This document shows, piece after piece, positions 24,713-55,272 of a stretch of 64,000 nucleotides of DNA; the first letter of the stretch is position 1; each line of letters begins with the position of its first letter. The stretch lies in NCBI GenBank assembly GCA_947372355.1, contig CANBTI010000005.1:103-64102 (forward strand). Reading direction: 5' to 3'. Both the position numbers and the translations under genes were made by a program. The notes below the pieces were generated by a model. It did no database searches, was not told where the DNA came from, and worked only from the letters and a program-made list of their open reading frames with translations. The stretch comes from Bdellovibrionales bacterium (GTDB lineage Bacteria > Bdellovibrionota > UBA1018 > CAIMNF01).

Positions 24713-24727
24713 TGGCTCAATAGTTGC
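24713..24727 (+). promoter_or_regulatory. Candidate sigma-54 (-24/-12) promoter upstream of CBS gene (1 mismatch)
   Basis: TGGCTC-aatag-TTGC; the -12 element lies 26 nt upstream of ATG 24753. A second 1-mismatch match in the opposite direction (TGGCGC-gatag-TTGC, rc of 24690-24704) faces the secreted-protein gene. Confidence 0.3.
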
Positions 24728-24752
24728 TGTTATAAAACAAGAGGTAATTTAA

Positions 24753-26749: not shown

Positions 26750-27000
26750 AGGAAAACAACTCCTTTCTGAAAACGAAACTTACTAGCAAATGTGAGGTAA
26801 TAAAATGATTAGTTTTGTAGACGGCAATTATTTTTAATCAACAATAATCTTGAACGACAAAATGTCACTTCAACATGATTAAATTACCCCTAGAAACAAT
26901 CAACGCAGTTACGCGGCACGTTGTCTCGATTTTACTTGTGTGAAGTCGCAATTAATAACAAAATTTATTGAGTAGATTATATTTATCAATCGGGGGATTC

Positions 27001-29230: not shown

Positions 29231-29287
29231 CTGATTGTATTATCACTGATCTAAGTTCTCGGTTATTTTTAATTTTATTCAATCATT

Positions 29288-30190: not shown

Positions 30191-30222
30191 TAACCCTCCT
30201 GATCATTGAGAATGAATCCTAA

Positions 30223-31659
30223 TCAAGATTCATCAGTTGTTTCCAATTGATTTTCTTCACTTTCGTCTGCAGAAGACAATCCGTATTCTTGTTCTTTACG
30301 ATAAAGAGTTCGACGATTAATGCCAAGAATTTGAGAAGCTTTATCTTTTCTTCCGCCAGTTTTTTCAAGAATCAAACGAATATATCTTTCTTCTAATTGA
30401 TTAATTGAAGGAAAATCAATGGTAGATGTAGAAAAGAACTTATCAGCACTTTGTTCCTCAACAGATGGTAAATCCACCTCATCTACTAAATTTGAAGTGC
30501 ATAAAACTACAGCGCGTTCCACAACATTTTCTAGTTCACGAACATTACCATCCCAACGCATACTCATTAATTTTGAAATTACTCTTTTGGTAAAACCTTT
30601 AACATTAATATTATTTGCAGCAGCGTGCTTTCTAAGGAAATGCTCGGCTAGAAGAGGGATGTCATCCACTCTTTGTCTTAGTGGTGGAATGACAATTGGA
30701 ATTACACTCAGTCGATAAAATAAATCATCTCTGAAAAGACCCTCTTTCATTGCTGATTTTAAATCCTTATGTGTAGCAGAAATAATTCTAACATCGATAT
30801 CTCGAGCAATATTTTCACCTACCGCACGTACCTTTTTTTCTTGAATCACTCTTAATAGTTTAGCCTGAAGTGATACATCCATATCTCCAATTTCATCTAA
30901 AAATATAGTTCCGCCGTTTGCTTCCTCAAATAAGCCCCTTTTTCTTTGAGAAGCTCCAGTAAAAGAACCTTTCGCATGACCAAAGAGCTCAGATTCTAAG
31001 AGATTTTCAGGAATCGCGGTACAGTTGATTGCTACAAAAGGTTTGTTTGCTCTTGGTCCGCCGGCATGAATTGCTTGTGCAACCATTTCTTTTCCAGTAC
31101 CACTCTCACCCGTAACTAAAACATTGGATGTAACCTGTGAAACGCGATTCACTAAATCAAAAACAGATTTAATCGCTGCACTTTTTCCAATCATGCTTCC
31201 TAACGACCAATTACTTTTTAATTCTTGTCGAAGCGCTGTATTATCGCGTTGAAGCTGACGATACTCAATTGCTCTTTCAACATTGACGAGCATTTCAGTA
31301 AGTTTAAAAGGTTTTACAATGTAATGGAAAGCTCCTTTATTCATTGCTTCAACTGCAGTTTCAATTGATCCAAATGCAGTGATTAAAATTACTGGAATTT
31401 CTGGTCGAAGAAGTTTTAACTTTTCAGTTAACTCTAAACCGCTCATTTGTGGCATTTTAATATCTGAAATAATTAAATCAATATTGCCTTCAGTTTTATT
31501 TGAAGCATGAATCCCATCACTTGAAAAAGATTGTAGTGCATCATTTGCAGATGAAAAACAAATCACCTCATAACCGTCACCGGTTAGATAATCATCAAGT
31601 AGGGCTCTCATTTCTTTGTCATCATCAATCACTGCAATTTTAGCTTTAGAGATTTTCAT
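30223..31659 (-). CDS. Sigma-54-dependent response regulator (NtrC family: REC + AAA+ + HTH)
   Basis: REC (AVIDDDKEMR...ISDIKMPQMSG), Walker A GESGTGKE, sigma-54 contact loop ESELFGHAKGSFTGA, C-terminal Fis-type HTH. Confidence 0.85.
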   Translation of the reverse strand: MKISKAKIAVIDDDKEMRALLDDYLTGDGYEVICFSSANDALQSFSSDGIHASNKTEGNIDLIISDIKMPQMSGLELTEKLKLLRPEIPVILITAFGSIETAVEAMNKGAFHYIVKPFKLTEMLVNVERAIEYRQLQRDNTALRQELKSNWSLGSMIGKSAAIKSVFDLVNRVSQVTSNVLVTGESGTGKEMVAQAIHAGGPRANKPFVAINCTAIPENLLESELFGHAKGSFTGASQRKRGLFEEANGGTIFLDEIGDMDVSLQAKLLRVIQEKKVRAVGENIARDIDVRIISATHKDLKSAMKEGLFRDDLFYRLSVIPIVIPPLRQRVDDIPLLAEHFLRKHAAANNINVKGFTKRVISKLMSMRWDGNVRELENVVERAVVLCTSNLVDEVDLPSVEEQSADKFFSTSTIDFPSINQLEERYIRLILEKTGGRKDKASQILGINRRTLYRKEQEYGLSSADESEENQLETTDES

Positions 31660-31813
31660 ATTTTTTCCTTAGGGTATGTGTAATTCAAACCAGTCAAAAA
31701 CACAAAGGAATAGCAGGGGAAATTGATAATTATTTAGTTTAAGTATATTTAATTTTATGCTAATAATTTAGTAGAAAACGGCCAACAAGAATCAGACCAA
31801 CAGTTAAAAAAAT

Positions 31814-32950
31814 ATGACTAAATTAAAAAATTACAGCATCTTGGTGATTGGTAACCAAAATGATTTTCTCGAAATAAATGGGCACTTAAAAAAATTAAAA
31901 AATTTTGAGGTAGAGCTTTTAACTGAAATCACTTCAGACAAATTACATGCCAAAGTATTTGATCTTTACTTTCTGAAACTCTCTCCTCAATCAAAAGAAG
32001 AACTTAAAACCTTAATTGATTTAAATCTTCATACCCACACTACCCCCATCATCATTTACTCCAATAAATATGACCACCAAATGGCACTGAAGGTAGTAGG
32101 ATTGGGAGCATCTGATTATGTATCACTTGATCAAATCGATGAGTATTCTCTAGAAAAATCGATATTTTATACCATTCATCACTCCAATGAAATCAAAGCC
32201 CTGTTGGTGAATAAAATTGAAGCTGCAATTCAAGACAGACTCTCCACTACAGAAATTCTCGCTTCAAGTTTAGCTCATGAAATTGGAACTCCTTTAGGAA
32301 TCATTCGCGGTAGAGCCGAGTTTATGCAACTTCAAACAAAGGAAAGCTCATTCATTCAAAAAAATCTAGAAACTATTATTTCTCAAATTGATCGTGTTTC
32401 TCATCTTATTAACTCTCTTTTAAAGATTTCTAATGGTACCGATTCAGAATCTTCAAATGCCTATTTTGCACAAGATATGATTAAAGAAGTAATTGAATTG
32501 CTAGATTATGAATTTCGAAAGCTTAATATTAATTTCATTAATGATTTTGAAAACTCAGATCCCACCCCACTAGGATCAGAGGTGAAACATTTTCATAAAG
32601 TTTTAATGAATATTTTAATGAATTCTATTCAGGCTATTCAAAGTGCTAAAGAACAAGGAAGAACAGAACAGCATTCGATTAAAATCACCAAAGAAATTCA
32701 CAATGATTTTTTACGCATTACCGTAAGCGATACAGGTTGTGGGATCCATGAAGCAAAACTAAAAAATCTATTCACTCCCGTTTTTAAAACCATTGATTTT
32801 GATCAGAACCCTGGTTTTGGTTTAGCAATTACTCATCGGATCGTGGAATCTTGGGGTGGTAAAATTGAAGTTACCAGTAAGCCAGATTTAGGCACTCAAG
32901 TTTCCATTCAACTTCCAAATAAATTAAAAACTAAAAATATTAGTGAATAA
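31814..32950 (+). CDS. Cytoplasmic sensor histidine kinase with N-terminal pseudo-receiver-like domain
   Basis: H-box SSLAHEIGTPLGIIRG, HATPase_c (SDTGCGIH...GFGLAITHRIVESWGGKIEV); divergent from the NtrC-like regulator. Confidence 0.8.
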   Translation: MTKLKNYSILVIGNQNDFLEINGHLKKLKNFEVELLTEITSDKLHAKVFDLYFLKLSPQSKEELKTLIDLNLHTHTTPIIIYSNKYDHQMALKVVGLGASDYVSLDQIDEYSLEKSIFYTIHHSNEIKALLVNKIEAAIQDRLSTTEILASSLAHEIGTPLGIIRGRAEFMQLQTKESSFIQKNLETIISQIDRVSHLINSLLKISNGTDSESSNAYFAQDMIKEVIELLDYEFRKLNINFINDFENSDPTPLGSEVKHFHKVLMNILMNSIQAIQSAKEQGRTEQHSIKITKEIHNDFLRITVSDTGCGIHEAKLKNLFTPVFKTIDFDQNPGFGLAITHRIVESWGGKIEVTSKPDLGTQVSIQLPNKLKTKNISE

Positions 32951-33260
32951 CTTTTAAAGTATCTTTTGGAATAGCAACTAATAGCAAACCATCACGATAT
33001 TGAGTTGCAATATTTCTTCCATGTGAACGTACAATCACATCTTTAGGTGAAAAACCATTTCCATTATCTTTACTTCCATCTCCTTTGATCACCAATTGAT
33101 CATCGAGTAGTTCTATATCAATCACATTACCTGTAATAAACCTTCCATCAATACTTAGTACATAATGAGTATCTCCTTCCTCCACATCAAAGATTGGATA
33201 TAACGGATAAGCCAAAACAAGGGCCTGCTGAATTTTTGAATAGGGTTGTTGTAAAATCAT
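32940..33260 (-). CDS. Small heat-shock protein (Hsp20/alpha-crystallin-like)
   Basis: PIFDVEEGDTHYVLSIDGRF...LVIKGD...LLLVAIPK fits alpha-crystallin domain pattern. Confidence 0.5.
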   Translation of the reverse strand: MILQQPYSKIQQALVLAYPLYPIFDVEEGDTHYVLSIDGRFITGNVIDIELLDDQLVIKGDGSKDNGNGFSPKDVIVRSHGRNIATQYRDGLLLVAIPKDTLKVIH

Positions 33261-33289
33261 GTTTCCGTATCTCCTAGGGAATTAGTTAA

Positions 33290-33304
33290 GCAAGAAAGGG
33301 GCCA
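33290..33304 (-). promoter_or_regulatory. Sigma-54 -24/-12 promoter upstream of Hsp20-like gene
   Basis: Minus-strand TGGCCC-ctttc-TTGC (rc of GCAAgaaagGGGCCA); -12 element 30 nt upstream of ATG 33260; RBS aggagat. Confidence 0.5.
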
Positions 33305-33374
33305 GCAATGAGTCGTTCAATTGGTTTTGAGTGAAGGATTTATTGTAAAAATGTGTTTTTTGAGCAAATTTGTC

Positions 33375-33683
33375 TCATTTTTTTATTTTAACCTGGTGAG
33401 TATTCATAAAATTCTCATATTTATAGGCTATTTGATTCAGAGTTAATTTATCTTTACGTTCGATCGCAGAATCCATCTCTCGAGCCAGTTCTACAATGTA
33501 ATGGTAACCAAATGATCCTGGCGTACCTAGAAGTCGGTGGCTAAGTTTTTTTAATGAGTGATAATCTGAAAATTCAATTCCACTTCTTAATTTTTCTAAA
33601 TCTTTCCACCTCATTTCAATAAAAGTAGGTAGAACTGGTTCCAAAACTCGCTCTACATTCACCACCCAATTTTGATTTTCCAT
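33375..33683 (-). CDS. Hpt (histidine phosphotransfer) domain protein
   Basis: LKKLSHRLLGTPGSFGY matches Hpt H-x-[LI]-K-G-s-s-x-x-x-G. Confidence 0.5.
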   Translation of the reverse strand: MENQNWVVNVERVLEPVLPTFIEMRWKDLEKLRSGIEFSDYHSLKKLSHRLLGTPGSFGYHYIVELAREMDSAIERKDKLTLNQIAYKYENFMNTHQVKIKK

Positions 33684-33686
33684 AAG

Positions 33687-34109
33687 TTATCCCACTCTTT
33701 TTTCATGAGATTTTTTGGTAAATAAATTTTGTCTCATTGTGGTTGGAGCAGTTCTAAACTCACCAATCGTTTTAATAAAATCAGGAATCTTAAAAGGTTT
33801 TTGAATTACTCCAACTACTCCTTGGGGCAATTTCATTTGCTTTAATCTGGGTACAGCGGAGAAAAACATGATGGGTGTATTTTCTAATATTCTTTCAGTT
33901 TTAACTGCAGACAAGAACTCATCGGACTTCATATCCGGTAGAGTTAAATCCAATAATATTAAAATCACCTCTGGACGAGTTCTTAAGATAGCAATTCCTT
34001 CTCCCGCTGTTGCAGCAGAAATGATATGATATCCCTCTTGTTCCAATAGCAATCTTAAAAGATCCTGCATTTCTCCATTATCTTCAATCACCAAAATATC
34101 GTTATTCAT
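33687..34109 (-). CDS. Single-domain response regulator receiver
   Basis: ILVIEDNGE...ILLDLTLPDMKSDEF; Lys near C-term. Confidence 0.8.
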   Translation of the reverse strand: MNNDILVIEDNGEMQDLLRLLLEQEGYHIISAATAGEGIAILRTRPEVILILLDLTLPDMKSDEFLSAVKTERILENTPIMFFSAVPRLKQMKLPQGVVGVIQKPFKIPDFIKTIGEFRTAPTTMRQNLFTKKSHEKRVG

Positions 34110-34148
34110 ACGTAGTTCCCAATACTATTTACGTTAAATAAAAATTAA

Positions 34149-34649
34149 CTAAACTGCTCTTTGAAAATGAAACCTTAAAAGATCAACAATCTCAGAGATG
34201 GGTTTCGTTTTTTTCACATGAGCAAGATACTTAAAATGCTTTGTGTAAGGCGGCTTACACTTTGATTTTTCACAGCTGGATAGAATAATCACTGGAACTT
34301 TTTTATTTTCCCATTCCAGTGGTAAGTTTGGCTCGAATTTGAACCCCTTTTCAGCTGCCACTAAAGTTTCATGGCCATTGAGTTTTGGAAGATCCCACTC
34401 TAATACAATTAAGTCGTAGGCATGTTCGGTCATCAAATCCATCGCTTCGAATGGGTCTTGGGCAACGGAAACCTTCAAGTCTCTGTCAAATTGCAGAAGT
34501 AATTGAATTTGGTTTGCCATTGCTTGATCATCATCAATGATGAGTACTCTTTTATACTTTTTTGTCTTGCTCAGATTTCGCAATGGCAACAGTGGTAAGA
34601 AGAAAGAATCATATGTTGTTAAACTACCGGCTACGAAATTAGAAAGCAT
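34149..34649 (-). CDS. Atypical receiver domain protein with Glu at the phospho-acceptor position
   Basis: RVLIIDDD (acidic pair) ... YDLIVLEWDLPKLNG aligns residue-for-residue with PhoB DLILLDWMLPGGSG, which places E at D53; ILSS and KP (T/K equivalents) present. Confidence 0.65.
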   Translation of the reverse strand: MLSNFVAGSLTTYDSFFLPLLPLRNLSKTKKYKRVLIIDDDQAMANQIQLLLQFDRDLKVSVAQDPFEAMDLMTEHAYDLIVLEWDLPKLNGHETLVAAEKGFKFEPNLPLEWENKKVPVIILSSCEKSKCKPPYTKHFKYLAHVKKTKPISEIVDLLRFHFQRAV

Positions 34650-34686
34650 GCATCACCCCTTTAATGTTTGTTCTGCATTCATCAAA

Positions 34687-34701
34687 GCAAGCACAATGCC
34701 A
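34687..34701 (-). promoter_or_regulatory. Sigma-54 -24/-12 promoter upstream of REC-REC-Hpt operon
   Basis: Minus-strand TGGCAT-tgtgc-TTGC (rc of GCAAgcacaATGCCA), 38 nt upstream of ATG 34649; strong RBS aaagggg. Confidence 0.55.
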
Positions 34702-34794
34702 ATTCTAAATAGCTGAAAATACTTGGATTGAAATCTCATTTATTTAATTTTACTTGATTTGACTCAAAATAGAGACTTATTGCCCCTGATAAGC

Positions 34795-35958
34795 CTATTG
34801 ATCACTTTCAAGTACTTTATACGATCGTCCCTCAAGTGAGGCACAAATTGACTCATAGATAAGTTTTTTGCAGGTTGAACAAAACAACTGTTTATTTTCA
34901 TCAAGACCCTTTAGGTTTACCATTTCAATCATTGATTTTTTTTCACAGCTTTTACAAATCACCTCAAAAGAACTACCGCTCACTGCAATGTCATTAAAAG
35001 GATGTTTATTCTTTAATAATCGAGCCTTTTTAAAAGCAGAATAGATTTGAAGATCAGCGATGTTAGCCCCGTTTGAGAATACCGTTACAGGGCCATCTTC
35101 TGAGATGGTGAATACGATTACATCTTCATGATCGTAAGAATATCTAACAGATGAAGTGTGTCGCGTGCCTTTGCACGCAGGAACAATTTTACGGCTTTTT
35201 TCAGAGTATTTAAGGTGTTCACCAGTACTCATTAATAATCCCTTAGAATCCAAAAATGTTGCACCATCCACCTGTGAGAGCAAATGACAAAACAACCGTG
35301 AATGAGAATCATTCATGATCGATAGTTGAAGAGATGCCAAATCTGAAGAAACTTTGTTAATTTTACCCAACTGCCAAACAATGACTCCCCCAGCTCTCAT
35401 GGTTGGGCTCATTAAATGGAACGAAAATTCCAAAATACTACTCAAAATAATCTTATCAATATTGGTAACGCATTTTGAAACTTTCCATGCGGCTTCTTTA
35501 ATATTAGGCTTACTAAACCAACGACGATTTTCGTGAATGATAATTCCATTATTTTGATAAAATTTTGCTAATCCACTGGATTCTTTTTGAATGATTAATC
35601 CAGCAGTAAGTGGGAAATTTCTAATCATTTGAAGTTCGTTGTTTATGGAGTGATTAAAACGGGCTAAGCCAAAAAAACTATCCTTTTCATACAATACAAA
35701 CCACTCCTTACCATCAGCCATCTTTCTAGCTATTTCTAATTGCTCATTTTGGAGTGAAATCACTTCGATATTTTCCAACTCAGAAATATTCTCAGCAAAT
35801 ATAATCCCACTGGAAAACATCTTGCCCTCATGCACCTCTGGTATAATTGCTCTTATACATTCTTGCGTAATGCTTTTTGACAATAACCAATCAAATTGAT
35901 TAGATCGCACACCATTTAATTCTAACTCTTGTGCGATCAGACTTTGCATTACCGACAT
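34795..35958 (-). CDS. DAC (diadenylate-cyclase-like, DisA_N/CdaA-type) domain protein with N-terminal unknown domain and C-terminal CxxC-x23-CxxC zinc ribbon
   Basis: MRAGGVIVWQ (GALI-like), SQVDGATFLD (DGA motif), ACKGTRHTSSVRYSYDHEDVIVFTISEDGPVTVFSNGANI aligns with CdaA [37 protein letters not shown] but with RHR->RHT; CKSCEKK...CSTCKK. Confidence 0.6.
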   Translation of the reverse strand: MSVMQSLIAQELELNGVRSNQFDWLLSKSITQECIRAIIPEVHEGKMFSSGIIFAENISELENIEVISLQNEQLEIARKMADGKEWFVLYEKDSFFGLARFNHSINNELQMIRNFPLTAGLIIQKESSGLAKFYQNNGIIIHENRRWFSKPNIKEAAWKVSKCVTNIDKIILSSILEFSFHLMSPTMRAGGVIVWQLGKINKVSSDLASLQLSIMNDSHSRLFCHLLSQVDGATFLDSKGLLMSTGEHLKYSEKSRKIVPACKGTRHTSSVRYSYDHEDVIVFTISEDGPVTVFSNGANIADLQIYSAFKKARLLKNKHPFNDIAVSGSSFEVICKSCEKKSMIEMVNLKGLDENKQLFCSTCKKLIYESICASLEGRSYKVLESDQ

Positions 35959-36063
35959 AAACGTATTGAATGCATAAAATCGGCCATCATAGTATTTAAT
36001 AAAATGTCGGCATACTTATTGATAATAACAATTGTGTCATTCAATGGACTTGGGGGAAGTAGA

Positions 36064-36504
36064 ATGGAATCTACAAAGAAGCGGAAGTCCGTATACGTTA
36101 TCGAAGATGATATTGAAATGTCTACGATCATTGATCGTGTTTTAAAGAGCATTGATCCAAGTATTATCTTAGATTGGTCTACGAGTGCGGAAGAGGCGAT
36201 ACTAAAAATCCAATCAGCTCTAAAGAAAGGCGTTAAAAAACCATATGATTTGATCATTACCGATGTTCTTTTGGATGGTTCACGCAGCGGAATAGACTTT
36301 TGGCAATTCTGCCAAAATGAATTCAGCAAAATACCCATTGTGGTTACCTCCGCTTGCAGTAAAGATTCACTATTTAAGACAAGTACGCCCCTTCCGAAGT
36401 CTTTAATATTTCTGCAAAAACCTTTTTCAATTTCAGAAAGTAAAAAGCTTTTTAAAAAACTTCTACTCGAAAAATCAAATACAACACAAAGCCAAAACTT
36501 ATAG
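36064..36504 (+). CDS. Single-domain response regulator receiver
   Basis: SVYVIEDDIEM...YDLIITDVLLDGSRSGIDF...LQKPF; probable start ATG 36064 (the track's 35929 start overlaps the upstream convergent gene). Confidence 0.7.
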   Translation: MESTKKRKSVYVIEDDIEMSTIIDRVLKSIDPSIILDWSTSAEEAILKIQSALKKGVKKPYDLIITDVLLDGSRSGIDFWQFCQNEFSKIPIVVTSACSKDSLFKTSTPLPKSLIFLQKPFSISESKKLFKKLLLEKSNTTQSQNL

Positions 36505-36507
36505 GGT

Positions 36508-36522
36508 TGGTACACAACTTGC
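36508..36522 (+). promoter_or_regulatory. Sigma-54 -24/-12 promoter upstream of REC-HK pair
   Basis: TGGTAC-acaac-TTGC with exact spacing; -12 element 40 nt upstream of ATG 36561; RBS tggggg. Confidence 0.5.
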
Positions 36523-36560
36523 TTTTAATATCTTTTACTTATTATTAATGGGGGCTTGCT

Positions 36561-36935
36561 ATGAGTAATCAGGGCATTTTAATCATTGAGGATGAAGATT
36601 GAATCAGAGAAGGACTAAGTCTTTCCTTGGAACTAGAAGGCTATACTACCTACACTGCTTCAAATGGTCAGGAGGGATTAGACATTTTGTCTCAGATCTC
36701 ATCTCCGAGTCTCATTCTTTTGGATTTAATGATGCCCGTGATGAATGGGTGGGAATTTGTTGAATCCATTAAAAAAATCAAAAAACTATCCAAAATTCCT
36801 ATTGTAATCATATCTGCATTTTACGATCAATCGAATAATATTCCTGTCCAGGGTCATTTGAAAAAACCAATTGCACTAGCCAATTTATATAAGACCATAA
36901 AAGATTTGGAAGTAACAAATGAGCAAAATGCTTAA
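36561..36935 (+). pseudogene. Receiver-domain gene interrupted by in-frame TGA at codon 14 (36600-36602)
   Basis: atg agt aat cag ggc att tta atc att gag gat gaa gat TGA atc aga gaa... = MSNQGILIIEDED*IREGLSLSLELEGY..., same frame as ORF 36627..36935; close paralog of intact REC at 39988..40356 (IIDDDETVRNTL). Confidence 0.6.
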
Positions 36936-37685
36936 TAATGACGAATATAAACAAACACTGACATTAGAAAAACATGCAAGGCAAGAAGCAGAAAAATCAC
37001 TCAGGCAGCGTGATGAATTTATTTCAATCGCCGCTCATGAGCTCAATACGCCACTCGCAGCCCTGACATTACAATTACATCTTCTTAAAAACTTGTCATT
37101 GAAGGTAATCATAAAAAAAATAATCATAAAATTGTTTCAAATTTATTAAAAAACTCAAATCTTCAAGTTGAAAGGCTAACAGGACTAGTAGAAAACCTTT
37201 TAGATACTACAAGAGCCAGCAATGGAAAATTATCCATTGAAAAAACTAAAACCGATTTATGTAAAACTGTACGCAGAGTAATTAAATTACATAAATTGGA
37301 TATTATAAAAAACAAATCTACTTATAGTCTTAATTTAGTGAAATCAGCAATTGGGCTTTGGGATCCCATCAGAATTGAGCAAGCAATTTCAAACTTGGTA
37401 AGTAATGCAATTAAATATGGAGCAGGAAAACATATTATTATTTCGGTTGGCATTGATAGCTTAAATGCTAAAATAACAGTGGAAGATCATGGAATTGGAA
37501 TGAGTAGCGAAATACTTTCCAAAATATTCAATAGATTTGAAAGAGCTGCTACCATTAAAACTTATGCAGGATTAGGTCTCGGGTTATTTATTACTAAAGA
37601 AATCATCAATGAGCATGGAGGAAAGATAGTTGCTGAAAGCAAACTTGAAGAAGGATCAATTTTTACGATAGAACTTCCTATTTAA
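36919..37685 (+). pseudogene. Sensor-less histidine kinase interrupted by a -1 frameshift in an A8 tract (37113-37120)
   Basis: Frame 1 encodes H-box FISIAAHELNTPLAALTLQLHLLKN and stops at 37149. From 37089, frame 0 continues KIVSNLLKNSNLQVERLTGLVENLLDTTRA...HATPase_c (GLGLGLFITKEIINEHGGKIV) to 37685. The switch site is the run aaaaaaaa. Confidence 0.65.
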
Positions 37686-38786
37686 ATTTAGAAAACTTAA
37701 AATTTTAAATAAGTAATTATGACTCTCCTTTTTTTGATTCTGAAGCCTTTGATTTAGTAGCGCATTATCTAAAGCAAAACTAATCCTATTACAAACATCT
37801 TCGGCTAGTCGTAAATCTTCCCAGGTGAATCTTCGTTCTATGTTAGAAGACATAAAGGTAATCACTCCATAGGAATGATCTCTAATGGTTAATGGAACGA
37901 GCATCATTGAATAAATTTTTAGTTTTTCCAATACTTCATTAAACGAAGAGTTTAAAAAAACTTCTCTTAGAATTAATTCAGAAGTCTCACTATACAACTC
38001 TGACTTTCCATCATGGATCACTTTGGGTATCCCTGTTGCTCCTAGAGAACTGATCCCTTGCTTTTGCCGACAATCCTTACCTATTATCGATAACGATTGA
38101 TCTGGATAATAAAAATCTAAGCATTCAATTTGTCCATTTTCATCCAATATATCAATCGAATAGGATTCAGTAATTTTTGGAACGATCATTCTACGGATCG
38201 CCCTTAGAGTGTCTTCCTGCATTACACAATGAGCCAATGTTCCATTGATGAGATTTAAGTAAACCGATTTTGAAGAAAGATCATGCAATAGTTTTTCAGT
38301 TTTAATTCGTTCGGTAATATCCCTAAAACTCCATGTTCTTCCTATTGCATTTCCATTCCTCATTTGCCCTTTAGAAAAACGCTCATAAATTCTGCCATCC
38401 TTAAATTCAATTAGATCTAAACTTTCACTGATATGATCGTTATACAGTGCTCTCACTTTACTGAGAAACATTTCCGGATCTTTAACTTGATCAATTACAA
38501 AAACAAGAAGCTGATCGTCATCTAAGGCTGCGGCAACTGATTCTGGTATTTTCCATAATTCTATAAACTTTTTATTAAATGAAGTAATTTTACCCTGGAT
38601 ATCTACAATTAAAACACCATCAATGATCGATTCAATTGTTTCTTTGATGATTGAATTGCAATTTAAATATTCACTTGATTTAACGCCACTCAACATTGAT
38701 CGAATTTCTCCCATTTCTTTTCTCAACGATTCGATCTTAGTAAAATTCGTTTCCTGTTTTTCCATTATCATTGACTTAGAATGCAA
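37656..38786 (-). CDS. PAS-GAF sensor protein without output domain
   Basis: N-terminal PAS (IIDGVLIVDIQGKITSFNKKFIELW...RDITERIKTE) followed by GAF-like region; 3' end overlaps convergent HK by 30 nt. Confidence 0.6.
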   Translation of the reverse strand: MHSKSMIMEKQETNFTKIESLRKEMGEIRSMLSGVKSSEYLNCNSIIKETIESIIDGVLIVDIQGKITSFNKKFIELWKIPESVAAALDDDQLLVFVIDQVKDPEMFLSKVRALYNDHISESLDLIEFKDGRIYERFSKGQMRNGNAIGRTWSFRDITERIKTEKLLHDLSSKSVYLNLINGTLAHCVMQEDTLRAIRRMIVPKITESYSIDILDENGQIECLDFYYPDQSLSIIGKDCRQKQGISSLGATGIPKVIHDGKSELYSETSELILREVFLNSSFNEVLEKLKIYSMMLVPLTIRDHSYGVITFMSSNIERRFTWEDLRLAEDVCNRISFALDNALLNQRLQNQKKESHNYLFKILSFLNLNRKFYRKN

Positions 38787-38812
38787 TTTTTATGCTCTCG
38801 AACGAATATAAA

Positions 38813-38827
38813 CGGCATCAACATTGC
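38813..38827 (+). promoter_or_regulatory. Sigma-54 -24/-12 promoter upstream of patatin-like gene
   Basis: CGGCAT-caaca-TTGC exact spacing; -12 element 26 nt upstream of TTG start 38853. Confidence 0.55.
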
Positions 38828-38852
38828 TAACTTTCATTGCAGGAAGTGAAAA

Positions 38853-39991
38853 TTGAACAAAAACCTAGGATTAGTATTAATGAGCGGAGGGGCACGAGGC
38901 GCCTACCAAGCTGGCGCGTTGCGAGCGATTGCTGAAATATCAAAAACTGAAACCTTACCCTTCCCCTACTTAACTGGAATATCTGCAGGAAGCTTGAATT
39001 GTGGATTTTTAGGTTGCTATGCAGATAACTTTAATCAAGCGGTCAGCAAACTAACAGACCTTTGGTATAACATTACACCAAGTGATATCTTCACCACTGA
39101 TCCATTAAAACTTGTTAAAAATGGACTTGGATGGATTAAAGATTTTAGCATTGGTGGCGTGGTAGGAGGCGTGAAAGGACGTTCATTACTAGACACCGCT
39201 CCTTTAAGAGAACTCTTAATTAAAAATTTAGACATGACCAAATTGGTTGATCACATATCCACAGGAAAAATTAAGGGTTTTGCAGCTTCGGCAACTAACT
39301 ATTACACAGGAACTTCAGTAGTTTTTTTTGACGGAATGCCTTCTATTGAACCTTGGATTCGTAATACAAAGATGGGAATACGCACTACCATCACCATCGA
39401 GCACCTCATGGCATCATCTGCAATTCCATTTTTTTTCCTGCAGTTAAAGTGGGTAATGCATTTTACGGAGATGGGTGCATTCGAATGCATTCTCCACTGA
39501 GTCCGGCCATCAATATGGGTGCAGAAAAAATTATCGCGATTGGAGTACGACACGAGCGATTAGTAAAAAAATCCAGCGATTTAGAAACTCCTTATTTTAT
39601 ACATTATCCCTTATTTGCAGAATTGGGCGGAATGATCTTTAATGCCATATTTTTGGATTCTCTAGAAGATGACATTGAACTTTCACATTCAAAAAATGTT
39701 ATCTTTTTACTTACTTCAAAAAAAAAACAATCCGACACTCGAATAAAACATATTCCCACTATGCTTCTCAGACCATCAATCGATCTTGAAAATTTAGTAA
39801 GGAAATCAGCAAAAAAGTTTCCTATGACTATTCAACATTTTTTAAAAGGCATGGGAGCATCTAGTGAAACTGGCTGGAATTTGATGAGTTATCTTGCCTT
39901 TGATTCAACTTATACCAGTCGATTAGTGGAACTTGGATATGAAGATACAATTTTAGCCAAGAGCAAATTAACCGATTTTATGGAAATTTAA
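38853..39991 (+). pseudogene. Patatin-like phospholipase split by a frameshift in a T8 tract (39429-39436)
   Basis: ORF1 has the oxyanion hole GGARGAYQAG and GISAGS (GxSxG nucleophile); ORF2 (frame -1) has AVKVGNAFYGDGCIR (catalytic DG) and the rest of the fold. Restoring T9 gives AIPFFFPAVKVGNAFYGDG in one frame. Confidence 0.7.
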
Positions 39992-40356
39992 CAATTCAGT
40001 TTTTTTAAAGTTTCCAACAATCGTTTTAGATCGATTGGTTTTTTTAAAAAAGCATTTACTTTAATTTTTTTTGCTTGTTCACTAAATGCACTGATCACCA
40101 CTACTGGGATTTTAGAAATTAATCGATCATTTTCACGAAAATCCAAGAACTCCCATCCATCCATAATTGGCATCATGAGATCCAATAAAATCAAACAAGG
40201 TCTCGGAATTTTTTCCAAAACTTCAATCCCCTCTTGACCATTAGATGCTGCAAAAACCGTATAATGTTCTTTTTCAAGAACCTCAATTAATGTATTTCGA
40301 ACGGTTTCATCATCATCAATAATTAGGATAACTTGATTCTTCATATCTATTTTCAT
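39988..40356 (-). CDS. Single-domain response regulator receiver (CheY-like)
   Basis: ILIIDDDETVR...LILLDLMMPIMDGWEF...LKKPI. Confidence 0.8.
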   Translation of the reverse strand: MKIDMKNQVILIIDDDETVRNTLIEVLEKEHYTVFAASNGQEGIEVLEKIPRPCLILLDLMMPIMDGWEFLDFRENDRLISKIPVVVISAFSEQAKKIKVNAFLKKPIDLKRLLETLKKLNC

Positions 40357-41581
40357 GGCTGAAACTTGACTTCATCCAAACTAAAGATTCATTTACCAAA
40401 TGATCGATATTCCCCACCATTAACTTTGCATTTGATTCCGGCATTAAATCTATAGCGATTCGATTTGAAAAAATGAGTTCACTATGATCAGACTCTATTA
40501 TAAATAAAGTTGGGCACTTAATTTTTTGAAGTGGAATCAGTAAATCAGGTTTTCCATTCAGTGAAACCATGCCCTGTGTAAGAGGTTCAAATAAAGAAAC
40601 ACAATGTAAAATTGCCGCAACACCAGAGCCTGATCCAAAGAATGCTATTGGCAATTGATCAAAAACAACATTATTTTTCAACCATTGCGTGATCATAGAT
40701 AATCTTTGCGAAATAACATCAACATGATAATAATTCGAATTGGAATTAATTTCATCTTCAGTAAAGAGATCAAAAACCAAAGTTCCATAACCATTTTCAT
40801 TCAAACTTTTGGCAATTTTAAGATTTTTAATGTTTTTTCTGCAACTGCCCTTACCATGTACAAAAATAACCCAACCAGATATTTTTTTAGGCTTCACCAA
40901 TTCCCCAACAATTTTTTTACCAAACACTTCAATACTAACTTCGTTGAATGAAAAGTTTTTTAATTCTCTTTTAATCAGATCAACTTCTAAGGTTGGATAT
41001 TCTTCATACCACTCACCAACCGAGCCAAAAATTGAAGGTGTATGAGCAGAGAATAGATAATCTGCTTCTGATTTTACCAATTGGTATCCAGTAGGTGAAG
41101 CCACTGGTACTACCACAGTGATCTCTTTGGCCCCCTGAATTCTAAGCGAACGGAGCGCCACTAACATCGAAGCTCCTGATGAAATTCCATCATCTACTAA
41201 AATAACGGATCTATCCCTCACATCCATTGGATTCAATTTTAATTGAAAGATTCGTTCTATATTTTGAACTTCCATCATCGATCGTGCAATTGTTTTATCC
41301 AATTGAAATTGGTTAATATTTAAAAAATTAATTAATTCATTATTTAACCAAATCTGATAGCTATCACCTACAGCACCAATTTCATAATTTGGATTAAGTG
41401 GGGTTCCTATTTTACTGACTGCAATCATCTCTAATGAAGCTCTTAATTTTTTCGCAATCGCCTTTGCCACTGGAACGCCAGTCAACGATAAAGCCACAAC
41501 AACTGCATTTTTATACTTCCATTCGTTATAAATTGCATTTGCTAATACGATTCCTGCTTGTTCTCTATTTTTGAAATACAC
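40316..41581 (-). CDS. Fusion protein: N-terminal type-I phosphoribosyltransferase-like domain (COG1926-type) + C-terminal alpha/beta hydrolase (dienelactone-hydrolase-like)
   Basis: PRPP loop VILVDDGISSGASML; hydrolase GWVIFVHGKGS, nucleophile elbow FFGSGSGVAA, His in NIDHL; GTG start at 41581. Confidence 0.6.
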   Translation of the reverse strand: MYFKNREQAGIVLANAIYNEWKYKNAVVVALSLTGVPVAKAIAKKLRASLEMIAVSKIGTPLNPNYEIGAVGDSYQIWLNNELINFLNINQFQLDKTIARSMMEVQNIERIFQLKLNPMDVRDRSVILVDDGISSGASMLVALRSLRIQGAKEITVVVPVASPTGYQLVKSEADYLFSAHTPSIFGSVGEWYEEYPTLEVDLIKRELKNFSFNEVSIEVFGKKIVGELVKPKKISGWVIFVHGKGSCRKNIKNLKIAKSLNENGYGTLVFDLFTEDEINSNSNYYHVDVISQRLSMITQWLKNNVVFDQLPIAFFGSGSGVAAILHCVSLFEPLTQGMVSLNGKPDLLIPLQKIKCPTLFIIESDHSELIFSNRIAIDLMPESNAKLMVGNIDHLVNESLVWMKSSFSHENRYEESSYPNY

Positions 41582-41599
41582 GGTTTAATCCCCTAAGCA

Positions 41600-41866
41600 T
41601 TATTTTAAGATAATTTTTTTATCGTGATATGCAAAAACTGGTGGTGGCCTTTTGGGTGGGTATTTTGAATGGGTGTTTTGAATATGATTTGAATTTTCAA
41701 CAACCTGATTGGGCGGATTAAGCACTTGTTGTAATTGTATAATACTAAGGCTCACTAAAGTGATGCAATACACTTTCGACATTAATTTTCTCATCAGCGA
41801 TGAAAAATGTTTGAATTTATAACTTTCAGCAGAAGTTGAATAATACATAAGTTGAGCCCATCCCAA
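41600..41866 (-). CDS. Small membrane protein (first gene of sigma-54-driven operon)
   Basis: TTG at 41866 or ATG at 41848 (MYYSTSAE...); hydrophobic VYCITLVSLSIIQL; perfect-spacing sigma-54 promoter immediately upstream supports expression. Confidence 0.4.
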   Translation of the reverse strand: MGWAQLMYYSTSAESYKFKHFSSLMRKLMSKVYCITLVSLSIIQLQQVLNPPNQVVENSNHIQNTHSKYPPKRPPPVFAYHDKKIILK

Positions 41867-41876
41867 ATATTTATTA

Positions 41877-41891
41877 GCAACCTATATGCCA
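41877..41891 (-). promoter_or_regulatory. Sigma-54 -24/-12 promoter upstream of small-protein/PRTase-hydrolase/REC operon
   Basis: Minus-strand TGGCAT-atagg-TTGC (rc of GCAAcctatATGCCA). Confidence 0.55.
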
Positions 41892-41954
41892 TTAGCATTT
41901 CCAATGGACTTCAAGCAATTTTAGTTCATTGGGTTTAAAAAATCTGAATGAGAC

Positions 41955-42002
41955 AAAAAATACAATTAAGAAAGGGATGGTCCATTTAAGTCCCATCCCC
42001 TT
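41955..42002 (-). terminator. Candidate rho-independent terminator after gene 42054..42602
   Basis: aagggatgg (41972-41980) / ccatcccctt (41993-42002) stem, followed on minus strand by T-rich cttaattgtattttttgtctc. Confidence 0.4.
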
Positions 42003-42053
42003 CTCATTATTTTCCAACTCAATTATTAGTGATTTAGAAAAAAACTCCCGTCA

Positions 42054-42602
42054 TTAACGGCCATTATTGTTGTCACATGGTGTTGGAGTTGGAGTTACGG
42101 TAGATCTTGTAATATGTGCTTTAACTACACAATAGATCACTGCTCCAACAATCACCACTCCGATTACTCGCATTGCCCAACGGTAACTACCTTGACCCCC
42201 ACTATAATTAGCTCCGTGTTGGTAACTACCAGCCATGAAATTCATCGCTAGATTACCAGCTTGCTCAGCAGAAACTTGACTTGTATCAATGGAAGTTAAT
42301 AAACGATCAAAATCCGCTCTTGCAGCTTCATCTAGAGTTGTGGTGCGCATGAAATCCATGATTTCAGTTGGTGCAATACCTTGCGCTTGTAAATTTTCTA
42401 ATTTTTGTTTGAAATCTGTAATAGCAACAGTTTGAAAGTTTGGATCATTAGGATCAACTTCAACTGTCATTTTATATCGAAATTCATTAAATGTTTTAGC
42501 AATCATTTTTGAATGTAAATCAATGTTATCATTTCCTACTGCAGCGAATGCCGAGTTAGAAACCATAGCTAAAACTGTGAACAGACTGAATACTTTTTTC
42601 AT
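42054..42602 (-). CDS. Secreted/membrane-anchored protein, paralog A (signal peptide, conserved ~130-aa domain, C-terminal TM)
   Basis: MKKVFSLFTVLAMVSNSAFA; shares TFNEFRYKMTVEVDPND...RADFD.LL.S...VS.E.AGNLAM.FMA..YQ.GA.YSGG and the TM (VIGVVIVGAVIYCVV) with 42788..43777. Confidence 0.6.
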   Translation of the reverse strand: MKKVFSLFTVLAMVSNSAFAAVGNDNIDLHSKMIAKTFNEFRYKMTVEVDPNDPNFQTVAITDFKQKLENLQAQGIAPTEIMDFMRTTTLDEAARADFDRLLTSIDTSQVSAEQAGNLAMNFMAGSYQHGANYSGGQGSYRWAMRVIGVVIVGAVIYCVVKAHITRSTVTPTPTPCDNNNGR

Positions 42603-42645
42603 TACCGACTCCTTTGATTATTGTTTTGTAGACGAATCCCTAAAA

Positions 42646-42660
42646 GCAATCACTATGCCA
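42646..42660 (-). promoter_or_regulatory. Sigma-54 -24/-12 promoter upstream of paralog A
   Basis: Minus-strand TGGCAT-agtga-TTGC (rc of GCAAtcactATGCCA), 44 nt upstream of ATG 42602. Confidence 0.55.
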
Positions 42661-42711
42661 CCGCAAAATTAAATATAATGAATTAAACTTTTAAATTTTG
42701 GTCATTTTGTC

Positions 42712-42764
42712 TCAAAATAAAAAAGGTGGTAGAAATATTGAGACTTAACTCAACTTCTACCACC
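42712..42764 (-). terminator. Rho-independent terminator after paralog B
   Basis: ggtggtagaa (42725-42734) / ttctaccacc (42755-42764) 10-bp stem, followed on minus strand by ttttttattttgag. Confidence 0.5.
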
Positions 42765-42787
42765 TCTATTTTCAGCCATGTAAATCC

Positions 42788-43777
42788 TTAATTGAAGCCG
42801 TGGTCAGGAGGTCCTAACTTAATGCATAACTCGGGATAAAGAACAAACTCCAATGCTTCACCATGATCACATCCGGTAGGACTAGCTGGAACCACATGTC
42901 CACTCACTGTATTGCAACACCATCCGTAGTCAGTGTTAGTATGGGTATCTGTGCAAGTATTAGTTACTGTATTTGTTATAGTATCAGTAAGTGTATTTGT
43001 AATAGTATCCGTTACTGTATTAGTTAACGTTTCAAAATTAGTAATAGTATTATAATTGGTAACGGTTTGAACAGAGGTCACAGTATCAGTAGTTACCACT
43101 GTATTATAATTTGTTACTGTTTCTGTATTATTAATTGTTTCTACGTTCGTTACTGTTTGAGTATTCGTTTGAACTTCAGTAGTTGTCACGGTATCGGTAG
43201 TTGTTTGAGTTTCTGTGTTAGTTTGTGTTTGAGTGTTAGTTCTTGTGACCGTATCTGTTACCGTTTTTGATCGCTGATCTTTACAATGCTTAATCACTAA
43301 ATAAGTGACAACCCCAACAATGATCACACCGATCACGATTAATGCAGCCTTATAATTTGCTCTACCACCACCACTGTAACTCGCACCTTGTTGATATTTA
43401 GCTGCCATAAATCTCATTGCAAGATTACCGGCTTCTTCACTTGAAACTTTATCGAGATTCAATGAAGAAAGCATGAGATCAAAATCAGCACGAGTAGAAG
43501 AATCAAGAACTGATGAACGCATGTAATCCATCACTTCTTCAGAAGAAATCCCTTTGGCCTGCAGATCAGCCATACGGTTTTTAAAATCTTCCATTGCTTT
43601 AGCTTTATACTGCGTATCGCTTGGATCCAGTTCAACAGTCATTTTATATCTAAAATCATTGAATGTTTTAGAGATCATATTCCTATGAGAAGAATTTATT
43701 CCTTCATTCGTTATGCCAGCAAGTGCTGAATTGGAGAGCATCGTGATAATGGTTAATAACCCTATTATTTTTTTCAT
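42788..43777 (-). CDS. Secreted/membrane-anchored protein, paralog B, with long Thr-x-Thr repeat region and Cys-rich C-terminus
   Basis: MKKIIGLLTIITMLSNSALA; conserved domain and TM as paralog A; then TVTDTVTRTNTQTQTNTETQTTTDTVTTTEVQTNTQTVTNVETINNTETVTNYNTVVTTDTVT...TDTHTNT; C-term DYGWCCNTVSGHVVPASPTGCDHGEALEFVLYPELC. Confidence 0.6.
   Translation of the reverse strand: MKKIIGLLTIITMLSNSALAGITNEGINSSHRNMISKTFNDFRYKMTVELDPSDTQYKAKAMEDFKNRMADLQAKGISSEEVMDYMRSSVLDSSTRADFDLMLSSLNLDKVSSEEAGNLAMRFMAAKYQQGASYSGGGRANYKAALIVIGVIIVGVVTYLVIKHCKDQRSKTVTDTVTRTNTQTQTNTETQTTTDTVTTTEVQTNTQTVTNVETINNTETVTNYNTVVTTDTVTSVQTVTNYNTITNFETLTNTVTDTITNTLTDTITNTVTNTCTDTHTNTDYGWCCNTVSGHVVPASPTGCDHGEALEFVLYPELCIKLGPPDHGFN
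42950..43270 (-). repeat. Degenerate short-period coding repeats (gtNacN units) encoding the Thr-x-Thr tract
   Basis: Repetitive gtaac/gttac/gtatc units across about 320 nt inside gene 42788..43777. Confidence 0.6.
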
Positions 43778-43856
43778 TTATTTTTTCCTATTCTTGTTTT
43801 CTATTTTTTAAATACAATTTGCATTCAGCGCCTACCAATCGCGCCAAAAAGTGAAA

Positions 43857-43871
43857 GCAATGAATATGCCA
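43857..43871 (-). promoter_or_regulatory. Sigma-54 -24/-12 promoter upstream of paralog B
   Basis: Minus-strand TGGCAT-attca-TTGC (rc of GCAAtgaatATGCCA), 80 nt upstream of ATG 43777. Confidence 0.55.
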
Positions 43872-43930
43872 TTTTAAATTAAAATATATTTGATGTTTGA
43901 ATCGAGAATCGGAAGTTTAGTCTCATTTTT

Positions 43931-43973
43931 AAGCCCTTAAAAAGAAAAAAGGTGGTGATTTTAACCACCACCT
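43931..43973 (-). terminator. Orphan terminator-like hairpin (minus-strand orientation) between paralog B promoter and pfkA
   Basis: aggtggtg (43949-43956) / caccacct (43965-43972) with 8-nt loop; on minus strand followed by tttttctttttaaggg; no annotated minus-strand gene ends here. Confidence 0.35.
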
Positions 43974-44088
43974 TCTTTGGGTCATCGCAGACGTGGGCAG
44001 AATTAACAATACAAACTGCATAAAGTTAGCTCTACGCTGCCTTTGTCGACCCATCCATGAAGATTTAAAAGCATAATTTATGCCATTG

Positions 44089-46454: not shown

Positions 46455-47336
46455 ATGATTACTCGTAGCTCATTTCAACAATTTAATTTTAATTTTCTAG
46501 AGATTGAATCCGAGGATGATTCCGGCTCACTCCTTCGCTCACTTCCGGATCAAGGATTGGCGATTGTGGGCACTCGATATCCTCAACAGAAATCCTTTGA
46601 ATTACTTGAAAATACGATCAAAGATCTTGCCGGTTCTAATTTAGTTATTGTTTCTGGATTTGCTAGAGGTGTTGATTCTCGTGCGCATGAACTCGCGATT
46701 GAACATGGATTAAAAACAATTGCCATCTTAGGCTGTGGTTTGAATATCGACTATCCGAGAGAAAATCGGGCCTTAAGAAAAAAGATTCTAGATCATGGAG
46801 GAATGATCATCTCCCCTTTTGAGCGGGATGAACCCGCATTACCAAGAAATTTTTTAAATCGGAATCAACTCATCGCCTATTTCTCGAAAGCGGTTTGGGT
46901 AGTAGAAGCGGCGGCCATCTCTGGAACGCTCAATACCGCAAAACATGCTTCCGAACTGAATCGTGATTTATATGCAACTCCCTGTTTTCCAAATGATCCG
47001 TTTTTTGAGGGAAATCAAAAACTGCTTTCTCAACAAAATTCTGAAAAATATCCCGTTGCTGATCTATTTTATGGCGTTAATTCATTCGGTAAAACTTGGA
47101 AAAACATCAGCATGGTGAATACGATTCATAAAACTACCAAAAGAAAAAATAGGAGCAAAATTCAAAATTGGATTTTAAATCTACAATTTGAACAAGGCGA
47201 ATGCAGAGTTCAAAGTTTGATGAATTTTGCTATATCAAAAGGAATCACTGCTGGGCAGTTTTATCAGGAATATGAAATTGAGCTCAATTCAGGGAAAATT
47301 ACTGAAAACCTGCTAGGGATAGTAGATCTAAAGTAA
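46455..47336 (+). CDS. dprA: DNA-processing protein DprA (Smf)
   Basis: LAIVGTRYPQQKS...VIVSGFARGVDSRAHELAI...TIAILGCGLNIDYPREN...RNQLIAYFSKAVWVVEAAAISGTLNTAKHASELNRDLYATP Rossmann-like DprA core. Confidence 0.7.
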   Translation: MITRSSFQQFNFNFLEIESEDDSGSLLRSLPDQGLAIVGTRYPQQKSFELLENTIKDLAGSNLVIVSGFARGVDSRAHELAIEHGLKTIAILGCGLNIDYPRENRALRKKILDHGGMIISPFERDEPALPRNFLNRNQLIAYFSKAVWVVEAAAISGTLNTAKHASELNRDLYATPCFPNDPFFEGNQKLLSQQNSEKYPVADLFYGVNSFGKTWKNISMVNTIHKTTKRKNRSKIQNWILNLQFEQGECRVQSLMNFAISKGITAGQFYQEYEIELNSGKITENLLGIVDLK

Positions 47337-55260: not shown

Positions 55261-55272
55261 ACCTTAAATAAA

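Follow-up and report, generated by a model that had tools for sequence, protein, structure and literature searches.

Predicted sigma-54 promoters in a signalling island

The question raised by this locus is whether a series of TGGCAY-N5-TTGC sequences, found in front of signalling and effector genes in a 64,000-nt stretch of Bdellovibrionales DNA (contig CANBTI010000005.1 of assembly GCA_947372355.1, positions 103 to 64,102; referred to here as the window), represents a set of promoters recognized by sigma-54 (RpoN) and, if so, whether these promoters answer to a common activator. An original prediction had listed seven such sites, which precede an Hsp20-like gene, a REC-REC-Hpt operon, a REC-histidine kinase gene pair, a patatin gene, an operon specifying a small protein, a PRTase-hydrolase and a REC protein, and two genes (Thr1 and Thr2) encoding Thr-rich paralogues, and had assigned all of them to one coherent and previously unannotated RpoN regulon. 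The sigma-54 reading is supported by the position and orientation of the sites, by their statistics, and by their conservation in other genomes, and it is considered highly probable that they represent genuine sigma-54-dependent promoters of an uncultured Bdellovibrionia bacterium.

All seven sites were recovered at the position and on the strand on which they had been predicted, in intergenic DNA and co-oriented with the genes which they precede. The GG and GC dinucleotides are intact in seven of the seven, none carries more than one mismatch, as had been claimed, and the distance to the start codon, previously given as 26-80 nt, was measured from the -12 C as 29, 37, 38, 25, 28, 43, and 79 nt, in the order in which the units are named above. 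The list itself proved incomplete, as four further sites were identified at 24690(-), 24713(+), 44071(-), and 55273(-), which brings the number in the window to 11, eight of them within 11 kb of the island. The GG-N10-GC spacing is exact at each of the 11 sites, nine of which scored between 14.5 and 19.4 bits against a sigma-54 weight matrix, with one at 13.3 and one at 11.6 bits, and the local consensus, nTGGCAT-N5-TTGCTT, agrees with the extended YTGGCAC-N5-TTGCW consensus.

The window contains 15 copies of TGGCAY-N5-TTGC when up to one mismatch is allowed, and the five exact matches represent a 15-fold excess over the 0.33 expected, a number reached in none of 100 shuffles. When both strands were scored with the matrix, all nine matches of at least 14 bits were located in sense-strand upstream windows (-150 to +30 around gene starts; 8.3% of the searched sequence), while 500 dinucleotide shuffles of these upstream windows contained a mean of 0.07 such matches and a maximum of 1. 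Matches which score 14.5 bits or more are all intergenic and oriented toward the start of a gene. The earlier view that the signal exceeds chance is borne out by these whole-window and upstream-window dinucleotide shuffles, which rule out an origin of the sites in chance or composition. Coding regions do not show an equal density of matches, the sole match of at least 13 bits within a gene being that at 29620(+). This sequence (CCGGGACGCCGATTGCAC, 29620-29637(+), 13.9 bits) is antisense within a Usp gene, downstream of the activator gene discussed below.

Sigma-70 promoters were considered as an alternative and rejected: sigma-70-like consensus sites number 31, as against 46.9 in shuffles, and so show no enrichment, and the relevant spacers contain no good consensus except one facing a phosphofructokinase gene. 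A mobile element or repeat carrying the sites was similarly discounted, as the repeat search returned nothing beyond the motifs and the similarity of the paralogous Thr1 and Thr2. The island has an excess of terminator-like hairpins (15 versus 5.4 in shuffles), and such hairpins are found directly upstream of the REC-REC-Hpt, small-ORF/PRTase (where ORF refers to open reading frame), Thr1, and Thr2 promoters, which argues for separate transcription units, as had been proposed.

The predicted promoter of the 106-aa Hsp20-like gene (32940-33260) is located at 33290-33304(-) (TGGCCCCTTTCTTGC; TGGCCC..TTGC, 15.0 bits) and is separated by 29 nt from the ATG, while that of the REC-REC-Hpt operon (REC, 34149-34649; REC, 33687-34109; Hpt, 33375-33683) is an exact consensus match at 34687-34701(-) (TGGCATTGTGCTTGC; 18.0 bits), 37 nt from the ATG, with a terminator-like hairpin at 34787-34771 on its upstream side. 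The REC-histidine kinase pair (REC, 36561-36935; kinase, 36919-37685) is preceded, at 38 nt from the ATG, by a site with TGGTAC at 36508-36522(+) (TGGTACACAACTTGC; 15.4 bits). The patatin gene (38853-39991) is preceded, at 25 nt from its start, by the weakest site of the window, located at 38813-38827(+) (CGGCATCAACATTGC; CGGCAT, 11.6 bits), whose low score is due to the C at -26. Exact consensus matches precede the operon composed of the small ORF (41600-41848), the PRTase fused to a probable hydrolase (40316-41581), and a REC gene (39988-40356), at 41877-41891(-) (TGGCATATAGGTTGC; 28 nt from the start); Thr1 (42054-42602), at 42646-42660(-) (TGGCATAGTGATTGC; 16.8 bits, 43 nt from the ATG); and Thr2 (42788-43777), at 43857-43871(-) (TGGCATATTCATTGC; 15.4 bits, 79 nt from the ATG). 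The hairpin upstream of the small-ORF/PRTase promoter, at 41970-42000(-), is a terminator-like structure which ends the Thr1 unit.

Among the sites added here, that at 44071-44085(-) (TGGCATAAATTATGC; 13.3 bits) is a variant with TTATGC at -12 which precedes a candidate ORF-free RNA. A divergent, back-to-back pair at 24690-24704(-) and 24713-24727(+) (15.1 and 15.2 bits, respectively) precedes TGase-elicitor-like and CBS genes, the two sites being 8 nt apart and 26 and 25 nt from the respective ATGs. The best-scoring site of the window (19.4 bits; TGGCACCGCAATTGC) is located at 55273-55287(-), before a choice-of-anchor-A/pAdhesive_15 gene (53776-55260). Within 55242-55287(-), the first ATG of this gene lies 12 nt past the -12 C, so that its mRNA would be leaderless unless translation begins at the second ATG, located 9 nt beyond the first.

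Conservation of the predicted promoters

A relative with approximately 93% identity to the window (ENA scaffold_225, represented by loci L013 and L014) spans the whole island in the same gene order. Its promoters differ from those of the window by 5 changes in 150 positions, compared to a mean intergenic identity of 91%. The consensus tolerates four of these changes, of which three affect the N5 spacer and one the Y position, and the fifth is the T>C change at -26 of the patatin promoter. The REC-histidine kinase promoter is identical in L014 and the 24690/24713 pair is identical in L013, the Thr2 promoter is kept in L014, and the 33290 site is kept in L013, where a TGGCCC to TGGCCT substitution cuts its score to 13.3 bits. 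The patatin promoter reads TGGCAT in L014 (15.1 bits) and in the more distant loci L005 (16.8 bits) and L020 (16.0 bits), in each case before an intact patatin gene of 370-393 codons.

Locus L005 shares approximately 67% DNA identity with the window, its PRTase being 52% identical. In the alignment of the window, L014, and L005, the element ATGGCATATAG(G/A)TTGCT before the small-ORF/PRTase operon is invariant within an otherwise diverged spacer, in which the conserved blocks are the start of the spacer by the upstream gene, the terminator hairpin, TTTTGTCTCAT, and the -24/-12 element. The hairpin at 41970-42000 is retained in L005 through compensatory changes. L005 further carries TGGCATTAAGATTGC before its patatin gene and TTGGCACGAGGGTTGCTT (22.1 bits) before a Thr-family gene.

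A scan of metagenomes for the Thr-family domain yielded five further loci (L015 to L019). In L015, L016, and L019, a sigma-54-like site is located about 57-78 nt before the Thr-family start codon, and L016 harbors four Thr-family units with such sites in a row. Three more loci were found through homologues of the DACNK-DAC cyclase of the island (34795-35958), namely L020 (63% identical) and L021 and L022 (55-56%). The whole island, including the activator gene, is repeated in L020, with sites before the patatin gene, the REC-REC-Hpt operon, and a divergent 64-aa gene, while L021 and L022 keep a DAC/Hpt/REC/small-protein/activator module with a site before the REC gene. The sites before the orthologous REC gene are located at position 4698 in L020, 17217 in L021, and 11554 in L022. 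Sites were, in sum, conserved before orthologous genes in L005, L015, L016, L019, L020, L021, and L022. The PRTase homologue loci L008 and L009 are uninformative for the island because they are not syntenic with it, and a scan of the genome collection with the PRTase protein returned only distant matches in Actinomycetota and Chloroflexota.

A candidate enhancer and its candidate activator

A word search of the upstream regions returned mostly A/T-only words, and among those containing G or C just TGAGACAA and AATGAGAC stood out, the latter being present in exactly five copies in the window, all in the 33-44 kb interval. Four island promoters carry the hexamer TGAGAC at a distance of 54-73 nt upstream of the TGG. 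The copy assigned to the 106-aa gene (33372-33377(-), extended as TGAGACAAATTTGCTCA) is 73 nt upstream of the TGG at 33304 and is identical in the approximately 93%-identical relative. That of the small-ORF/PRTase operon is in reverse orientation (41949-41954(+)), 63 nt upstream of the TGG at 41891, and is contained in the 11-nt block TTTTGTCTCAT, which is invariant in the three-way alignment described above. Those of Thr1 (42709-42714(-); TGAGACAAAATGACC, a member of repeat family D18) and Thr2 (43920-43925(-), identical in L014) are both 54 nt upstream of the respective TGG, at 42660 and 43871. Variants of the hexamer, TGAGTC and TGAGAT, are present upstream of the REC-REC-Hpt promoter. The repeat search independently recovered these elements (D18, I10, I14, and I16).

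The motif is also encountered in other genomes. TGAGAC is present at -52 before the promoter of an analogous PRTase-type unit in L016, GTCTCA is found at -55 of a sigma-54-like site before the HSP20 gene of L022, and the REC operon of L020 carries the motif, one motif site being common to a divergent promoter pair. Across 11 loci, TGAGAC or GTCTCA is located at -51 to -84 in 10 of the 36 promoter-like sites of at least 14 bits, as compared to a chance rate of 2.5% per site. The aligned instances read TGAGAC-AAA-n-T-(G/T)-n-C, with a weak dyad, GAGAC-N5-G(T/A)C. Because the element is approximately 80-100 bp from the expected transcription start, orientation-independent, and conserved, it reads as a candidate enhancer, and we would give even chances to its being the enhancer of these promoters. 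Further copies of TGAGAC occur in coding sequence at 36689-36694, 36709-36714, and 33731-33736 (all on the minus strand), among which TGAGACAAAATGTCTAA matches the Thr1 upstream site over 17 nt with 88% identity, and two of which, 20 nt apart, are about 170-190 nt downstream of the REC-histidine kinase promoter.

The gene at 30223-31659(-) encodes a protein with the domain composition of the NtrC family according to Pfam and NCBIfam, comprising a REC domain (PF00072), a sigma-54 AAA+ domain (PF00158, 238 bits), PF25601, and an HTH_8 domain (PF02954). Its score is under every NCBIfam equivalog cut-off (466 bits versus 714 in the case of AtoC), and it is, therefore, not an orthologue of any named regulator (such as AtoC, NtrC, ZraR, or GlrR). 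In L020, L021, and L022, this gene is likewise linked to those for DAC, REC, and Hpt, on account of which its product is regarded as the best candidate activator; that it does activate these promoters is a tentative proposal, to which we would give slightly less than even odds. The divergent histidine kinase gene (31814-32950(+)), whose product comprises a weak REC-like N terminus followed by HisKA and HATPase_c domains, specifies a candidate cognate kinase, and the arrangement is kept in L013 and L020.

A second NtrC-like protein (47299-48480(-); REC and AAA+ domains) was considered as a regulator and rejected, as GAMPMS replaces its sigma-54 contact loop and no helix-turn-helix domain is present; it is probably not a sigma-54 activator. 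Its gene is co-oriented with, and overlaps, that of a 657-aa histidine kinase (48456-50429).

From these features we infer sigma-54 use, the identities of the enhancer and of the activator, and a feedback loop, in the following manner. Sigma-54 RNA polymerase would be held as a closed complex on the GG (-24) and GC (-12) elements, and firing would require ATP hydrolysis by an AAA+ enhancer-binding protein bound approximately 80-100 bp upstream of the start. The sequence TGAGAC(AAA)-N-TG(A/T)C would represent the probable enhancer for at least the Hsp20-like, small-ORF/PRTase/REC, Thr1, and Thr2 units, and the REC-REC-Hpt operon probably belongs with these TGAGAC-controlled units. The likeliest activator would be the 30223-31659 protein, phosphorylated by the 31814-32950 kinase, by the Hpt phosphorelay, or by both, and, with the Hpt phosphorelay itself under a predicted sigma-54 promoter, positive feedback would ensue.

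One regulon or several activators

A number of observations weigh against the proposal of a sigma-54 regulon as outlined above. The weight matrix is approximate, its frequencies following the published YTGGCACG-N4-TTGCW consensus and not a curated set, and the binomial P of about 1e-8 for the TGAGAC excess is optimistic, as some of the loci are related. Thr1 and Thr2 are paralogues, so that their promoters count as one evolutionary event, and no sigma-54-like site was found at the Thr-family loci L017 and L018. The contact loop of the 30223-31659 protein reads GSFTGA, and the earlier description of an intact GAFTGA was, therefore, mistaken; the central F-T is kept, and the Phe-Thr pair of this loop has been reported as comprising its most critical residues (PMC3162934). 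The window proteins that were scanned, a subset of its ORFs, included no RpoN; both Bdellovibrio bacteriovorus (bd0843) and Bacteriovorax marinus have been reported to possess RpoN genes (PMC3464611, PMC3526173). Three genes in two of the seven units (REC, kinase, and patatin) are disrupted in comparison to L014. Finally, TGAGAC was not found at the REC-histidine kinase and patatin promoters.

This last observation bears on the proposal of one coherent RpoN regulon, because of which more than one activator may act on these promoters. The four promoters with TGAGAC, along with the variants at REC-REC-Hpt, are in keeping with that proposal, while the REC-histidine kinase and patatin promoters fit it less well. 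An alternative whose prospects are close to even is that the promoters are real and do not constitute one regulon: several enhancer-binding proteins, most of them encoded elsewhere, would operate here, and the neighbouring activator would control at most the adjacent operons. Apart from the two promoters just mentioned, the 24.7-kb pair before the TGase and CBS genes and the adhesin promoter also lack a detectable TGAGAC, the promoters of the RNA type possess a -12 variant of their own, (T/A)ATGC, and delta-proteobacterial lineages encode an average of approximately 33 activators per genome (PMC3162934), all of which would suit such a division of labor. It is harder to reconcile with the presence of eight promoters within 11 kb of one low-G+C island, with the one upstream motif common to four or five of them, and with the linkage of the activator gene to the island core in L020 to L022.

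Gene disruptions within the island

The disrupted genes allow for a further interpretation, namely, that the sites are ancestral sigma-54 promoters in a decaying island, some of which are no longer used. The REC gene of the REC-histidine kinase pair contains a TGA at 36600 (codon 14) where the relative has GGA, and the adjoining kinase gene carries a frameshift near 37086, the same gene of L014 changing frame approximately 40 nt further on; because these positions differ, each genome appears to carry its own disruption. The patatin gene combines a 1-nt deletion at 39439 with the T>C change which weakens its promoter at -26, and, on the downstream side of the 44071 promoter, a 1.7-kb segment with PolX is absent at approximately 43930-43938. 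TGA recoding was rejected as an explanation of the REC stop codon, as TGA ends neighbouring genes such as Hpt. The REC and patatin genes are intact in L014. The lesions at 36600, approximately 37086, and 39439 and the loss of PolX may represent real pseudogenization or assembly errors, and, in metagenome assemblies, an indel of one base can arise as an error of the consensus. Moreover, the other five units possess intact genes, the -24/-12 core bases are all conserved relative to the 93%-identical genome, and the RNA following the 44071 promoter differs from its counterpart in L014 by 1 change in 133 nt, a degree of conservation (compared to the intergenic average of 91%) which indicates selection. 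That some of the promoters have fallen out of use in a decaying island is, on balance, rather unlikely.

That the motif represents the operator of an ordinary DNA-binding protein, or a composition artefact, is the least credible of the alternatives and very unlikely indeed: the arms of the 24690/24713 pair form a 38-bp palindrome (GCAACTAT-N3-GCCA-N8-TGGC-N3-ATAGTTGC) which would suit a dimeric repressor, so that this pair may conceivably be an operator, but the other nine sites are without dyad symmetry, all sites point to a gene at 12-79 nt from its start codon, the exact GG-N10-GC spacing and the TTGCTT tail are typical of sigma-54 throughout, shuffles exclude chance, and the sites are not part of any extended repeat or mobile element.

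A putative group II intron-derived RNA

Returning to the sites as sigma-54 promoters, that at 44071 precedes an ORF-free stretch of approximately 110 nt (about 44059-43940(-)) which comprises a long hairpin followed by a strong hairpin with a T-run (43977-43945). Its fold energy is -43.3 kcal/mol (z = -4.36), and a search of this RNA against Rfam returned no match. In the 93%-identical relative, the ORF-free RNA precedes the PolX gene, which is deleted in the window.

Homologous ORF-free stretches of 700-790 nt, each preceded by a TGGCA(T/C)-N5-(T/A)ATGC promoter, were found in L005 (2247-3000), L008 (6830-7650), and L022 (4066-4860), with genes for Dps, PolX, Hsp20, FtsH, and eRF1-like (Host_attach/baeRF) proteins as their neighbours. 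The resemblance of these RNAs to group II introns resides in the Rfam model group-II-D1D4-4 (RF02003), for which the gathering score of 49 is reached in L005 (50.1 bits) and L008 (52.4 bits) and approached in L022 (47.5 bits), and in an invariant domain-5-like hairpin with a 2-nt bulge at the canonical place. They differ from group II introns in that the base of the triad helix is non-canonical, in that the three loci were found to contain neither a reverse transcriptase ORF nor a match to RF00029 (domain 5/6), and in that no 5' exon is apparent, since conservation begins at about the expected transcription start. The hairpin of the window is homologous to an internal hairpin of these RNAs, two compensatory pairs being present among three sequences. 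The RNA, of which three full-length representatives are available, may be a sigma-54-transcribed derivative of a group II intron, of which the window appears to retain a conserved remnant of approximately 110 nt.

Combining these strands, the island may be viewed as the core of a self-amplifying, lineage-specific regulon composed of sigma-54, one activator, a phosphorelay, and an undescribed enhancer, TGAGAC-N5-G(T/A)C, with one promoter type transcribing an independent, group II intron-derived RNA. As a whole, this scheme is speculative and somewhat unlikely to hold in all of its parts; if true, the RNA would represent not a mobile intron but a domesticated, group II ribozyme-like RNA that is expressed from a sigma-54 promoter of its own.

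Comparison with known sigma-54 systems

The predicted promoters share several properties with the RpoN regulons of delta-proteobacteria, such as that of Geobacter sulfurreducens (PMC2725144) and the system of Myxococcus xanthus, for which 53 activators have been reported, as cited in PMC3162934: TGGCA-N6-TTGC promoters serve many units, activators are encoded beside their targets, and the targets include signalling, envelope, and stress functions, not nitrogen genes only. In contrast, the gene set of the present island comprises a patatin, a PRTase-hydrolase, Thr-rich membrane proteins, and the REC-REC-Hpt proteins, and its host is an uncultured member of the Bdellovibrionia.

With NtrC, AtoC, and ZraR of E. 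coli, the candidate activator shares the order of its REC domain, AAA+ sigma-54 domain, and Fis-type helix-turn-helix, as well as the divergent histidine kinase gene alongside, and the candidate upstream site is likewise approximately 80-100 bp from the start and present in either orientation. The GSFTGA loop and the lack of orthology set it apart, and TGAGAC-N5-G(T/A)C, as a candidate site, does not resemble the TGCACC-N5-GGTGCA of NtrC.

Sigma-54 has been described as a "controller of the bacterial exterior" (Francke et al. 2011, PMC3162934), and the sigma-54 regulon of Chlamydia comprises membrane proteins and effectors (PMC7482065). The predicted targets of the window are similar in that membrane-anchored proteins are among them, together with an adhesin-like protein and a phospholipase, and different in that about half of the units encode phosphorelay components.

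The original prediction had described the regulon as previously unannotated, which is a fair description. No sigma-54 regulon in Bdellovibrionota was found in the literature searched, which notes just the existence of the gene, and sigma-54 regulation in this phylum is essentially unmapped; the kind of system is, however, standard, and the island adds one more case, from a little-studied class, to a well-known type of regulation and does not define a new type. Our knowledge of how sigma-54 works is unchanged by these findings. What the window yields is a high-confidence set of predicted promoters, a local consensus (TGGCAT-N5-TTGCTT), and a concrete activator-to-target hypothesis, and the candidate enhancer motif could seed genome-wide regulon prediction across the class. 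According to this arrangement, a signal may co-induce phosphorelay proteins, a patatin phospholipase, and Thr-rich membrane proteins, which would bear on how these often predatory bacteria change state.

Source and gene content of the window

The proteins of the window are also encoded in the metagenome-assembled genome GCA_947377415.1. The aspartyl-tRNA synthetase of the window shares 83-84% identity with proteins annotated as "MAG: Bdellovibrionales bacterium" and 74-75% with those annotated as "Bdellovibrionia bacterium", on which basis the source is believed to be an uncultured member of the Bdellovibrionia. No tRNA and no Rfam family at gathering score was found in the window. Between approximately 24 and 44 kb, the G+C content is 33-36%, as compared to 38-43% in the flanks; this low-G+C segment (24000-44000) coincides with the signalling island and contains 10 of the 11 sigma-54 sites.

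Most of the earlier gene labels were confirmed by Pfam, and the island additionally encodes a GAF/PAS protein (37656-38786). The Hsp20 label is plausible as a resemblance and falls short as a family assignment, the 106-aa product scoring 19.4 bits against PF00011, just under the gathering cut-off of 20.8 (E = 0.0012; profile positions 2-88 of 102). Both Thr-rich proteins possess a signal peptide, a domain of approximately 120 aa, one membrane helix, and a Thr-rich tail; their earlier description as surface proteins should be read as a conjecture. Outside the island, a gene at 1143-2066(+) encodes an RpoH-type (sigma-32) factor (NCBIfam PRK06596, 260.6 bits versus a cut-off of 241).

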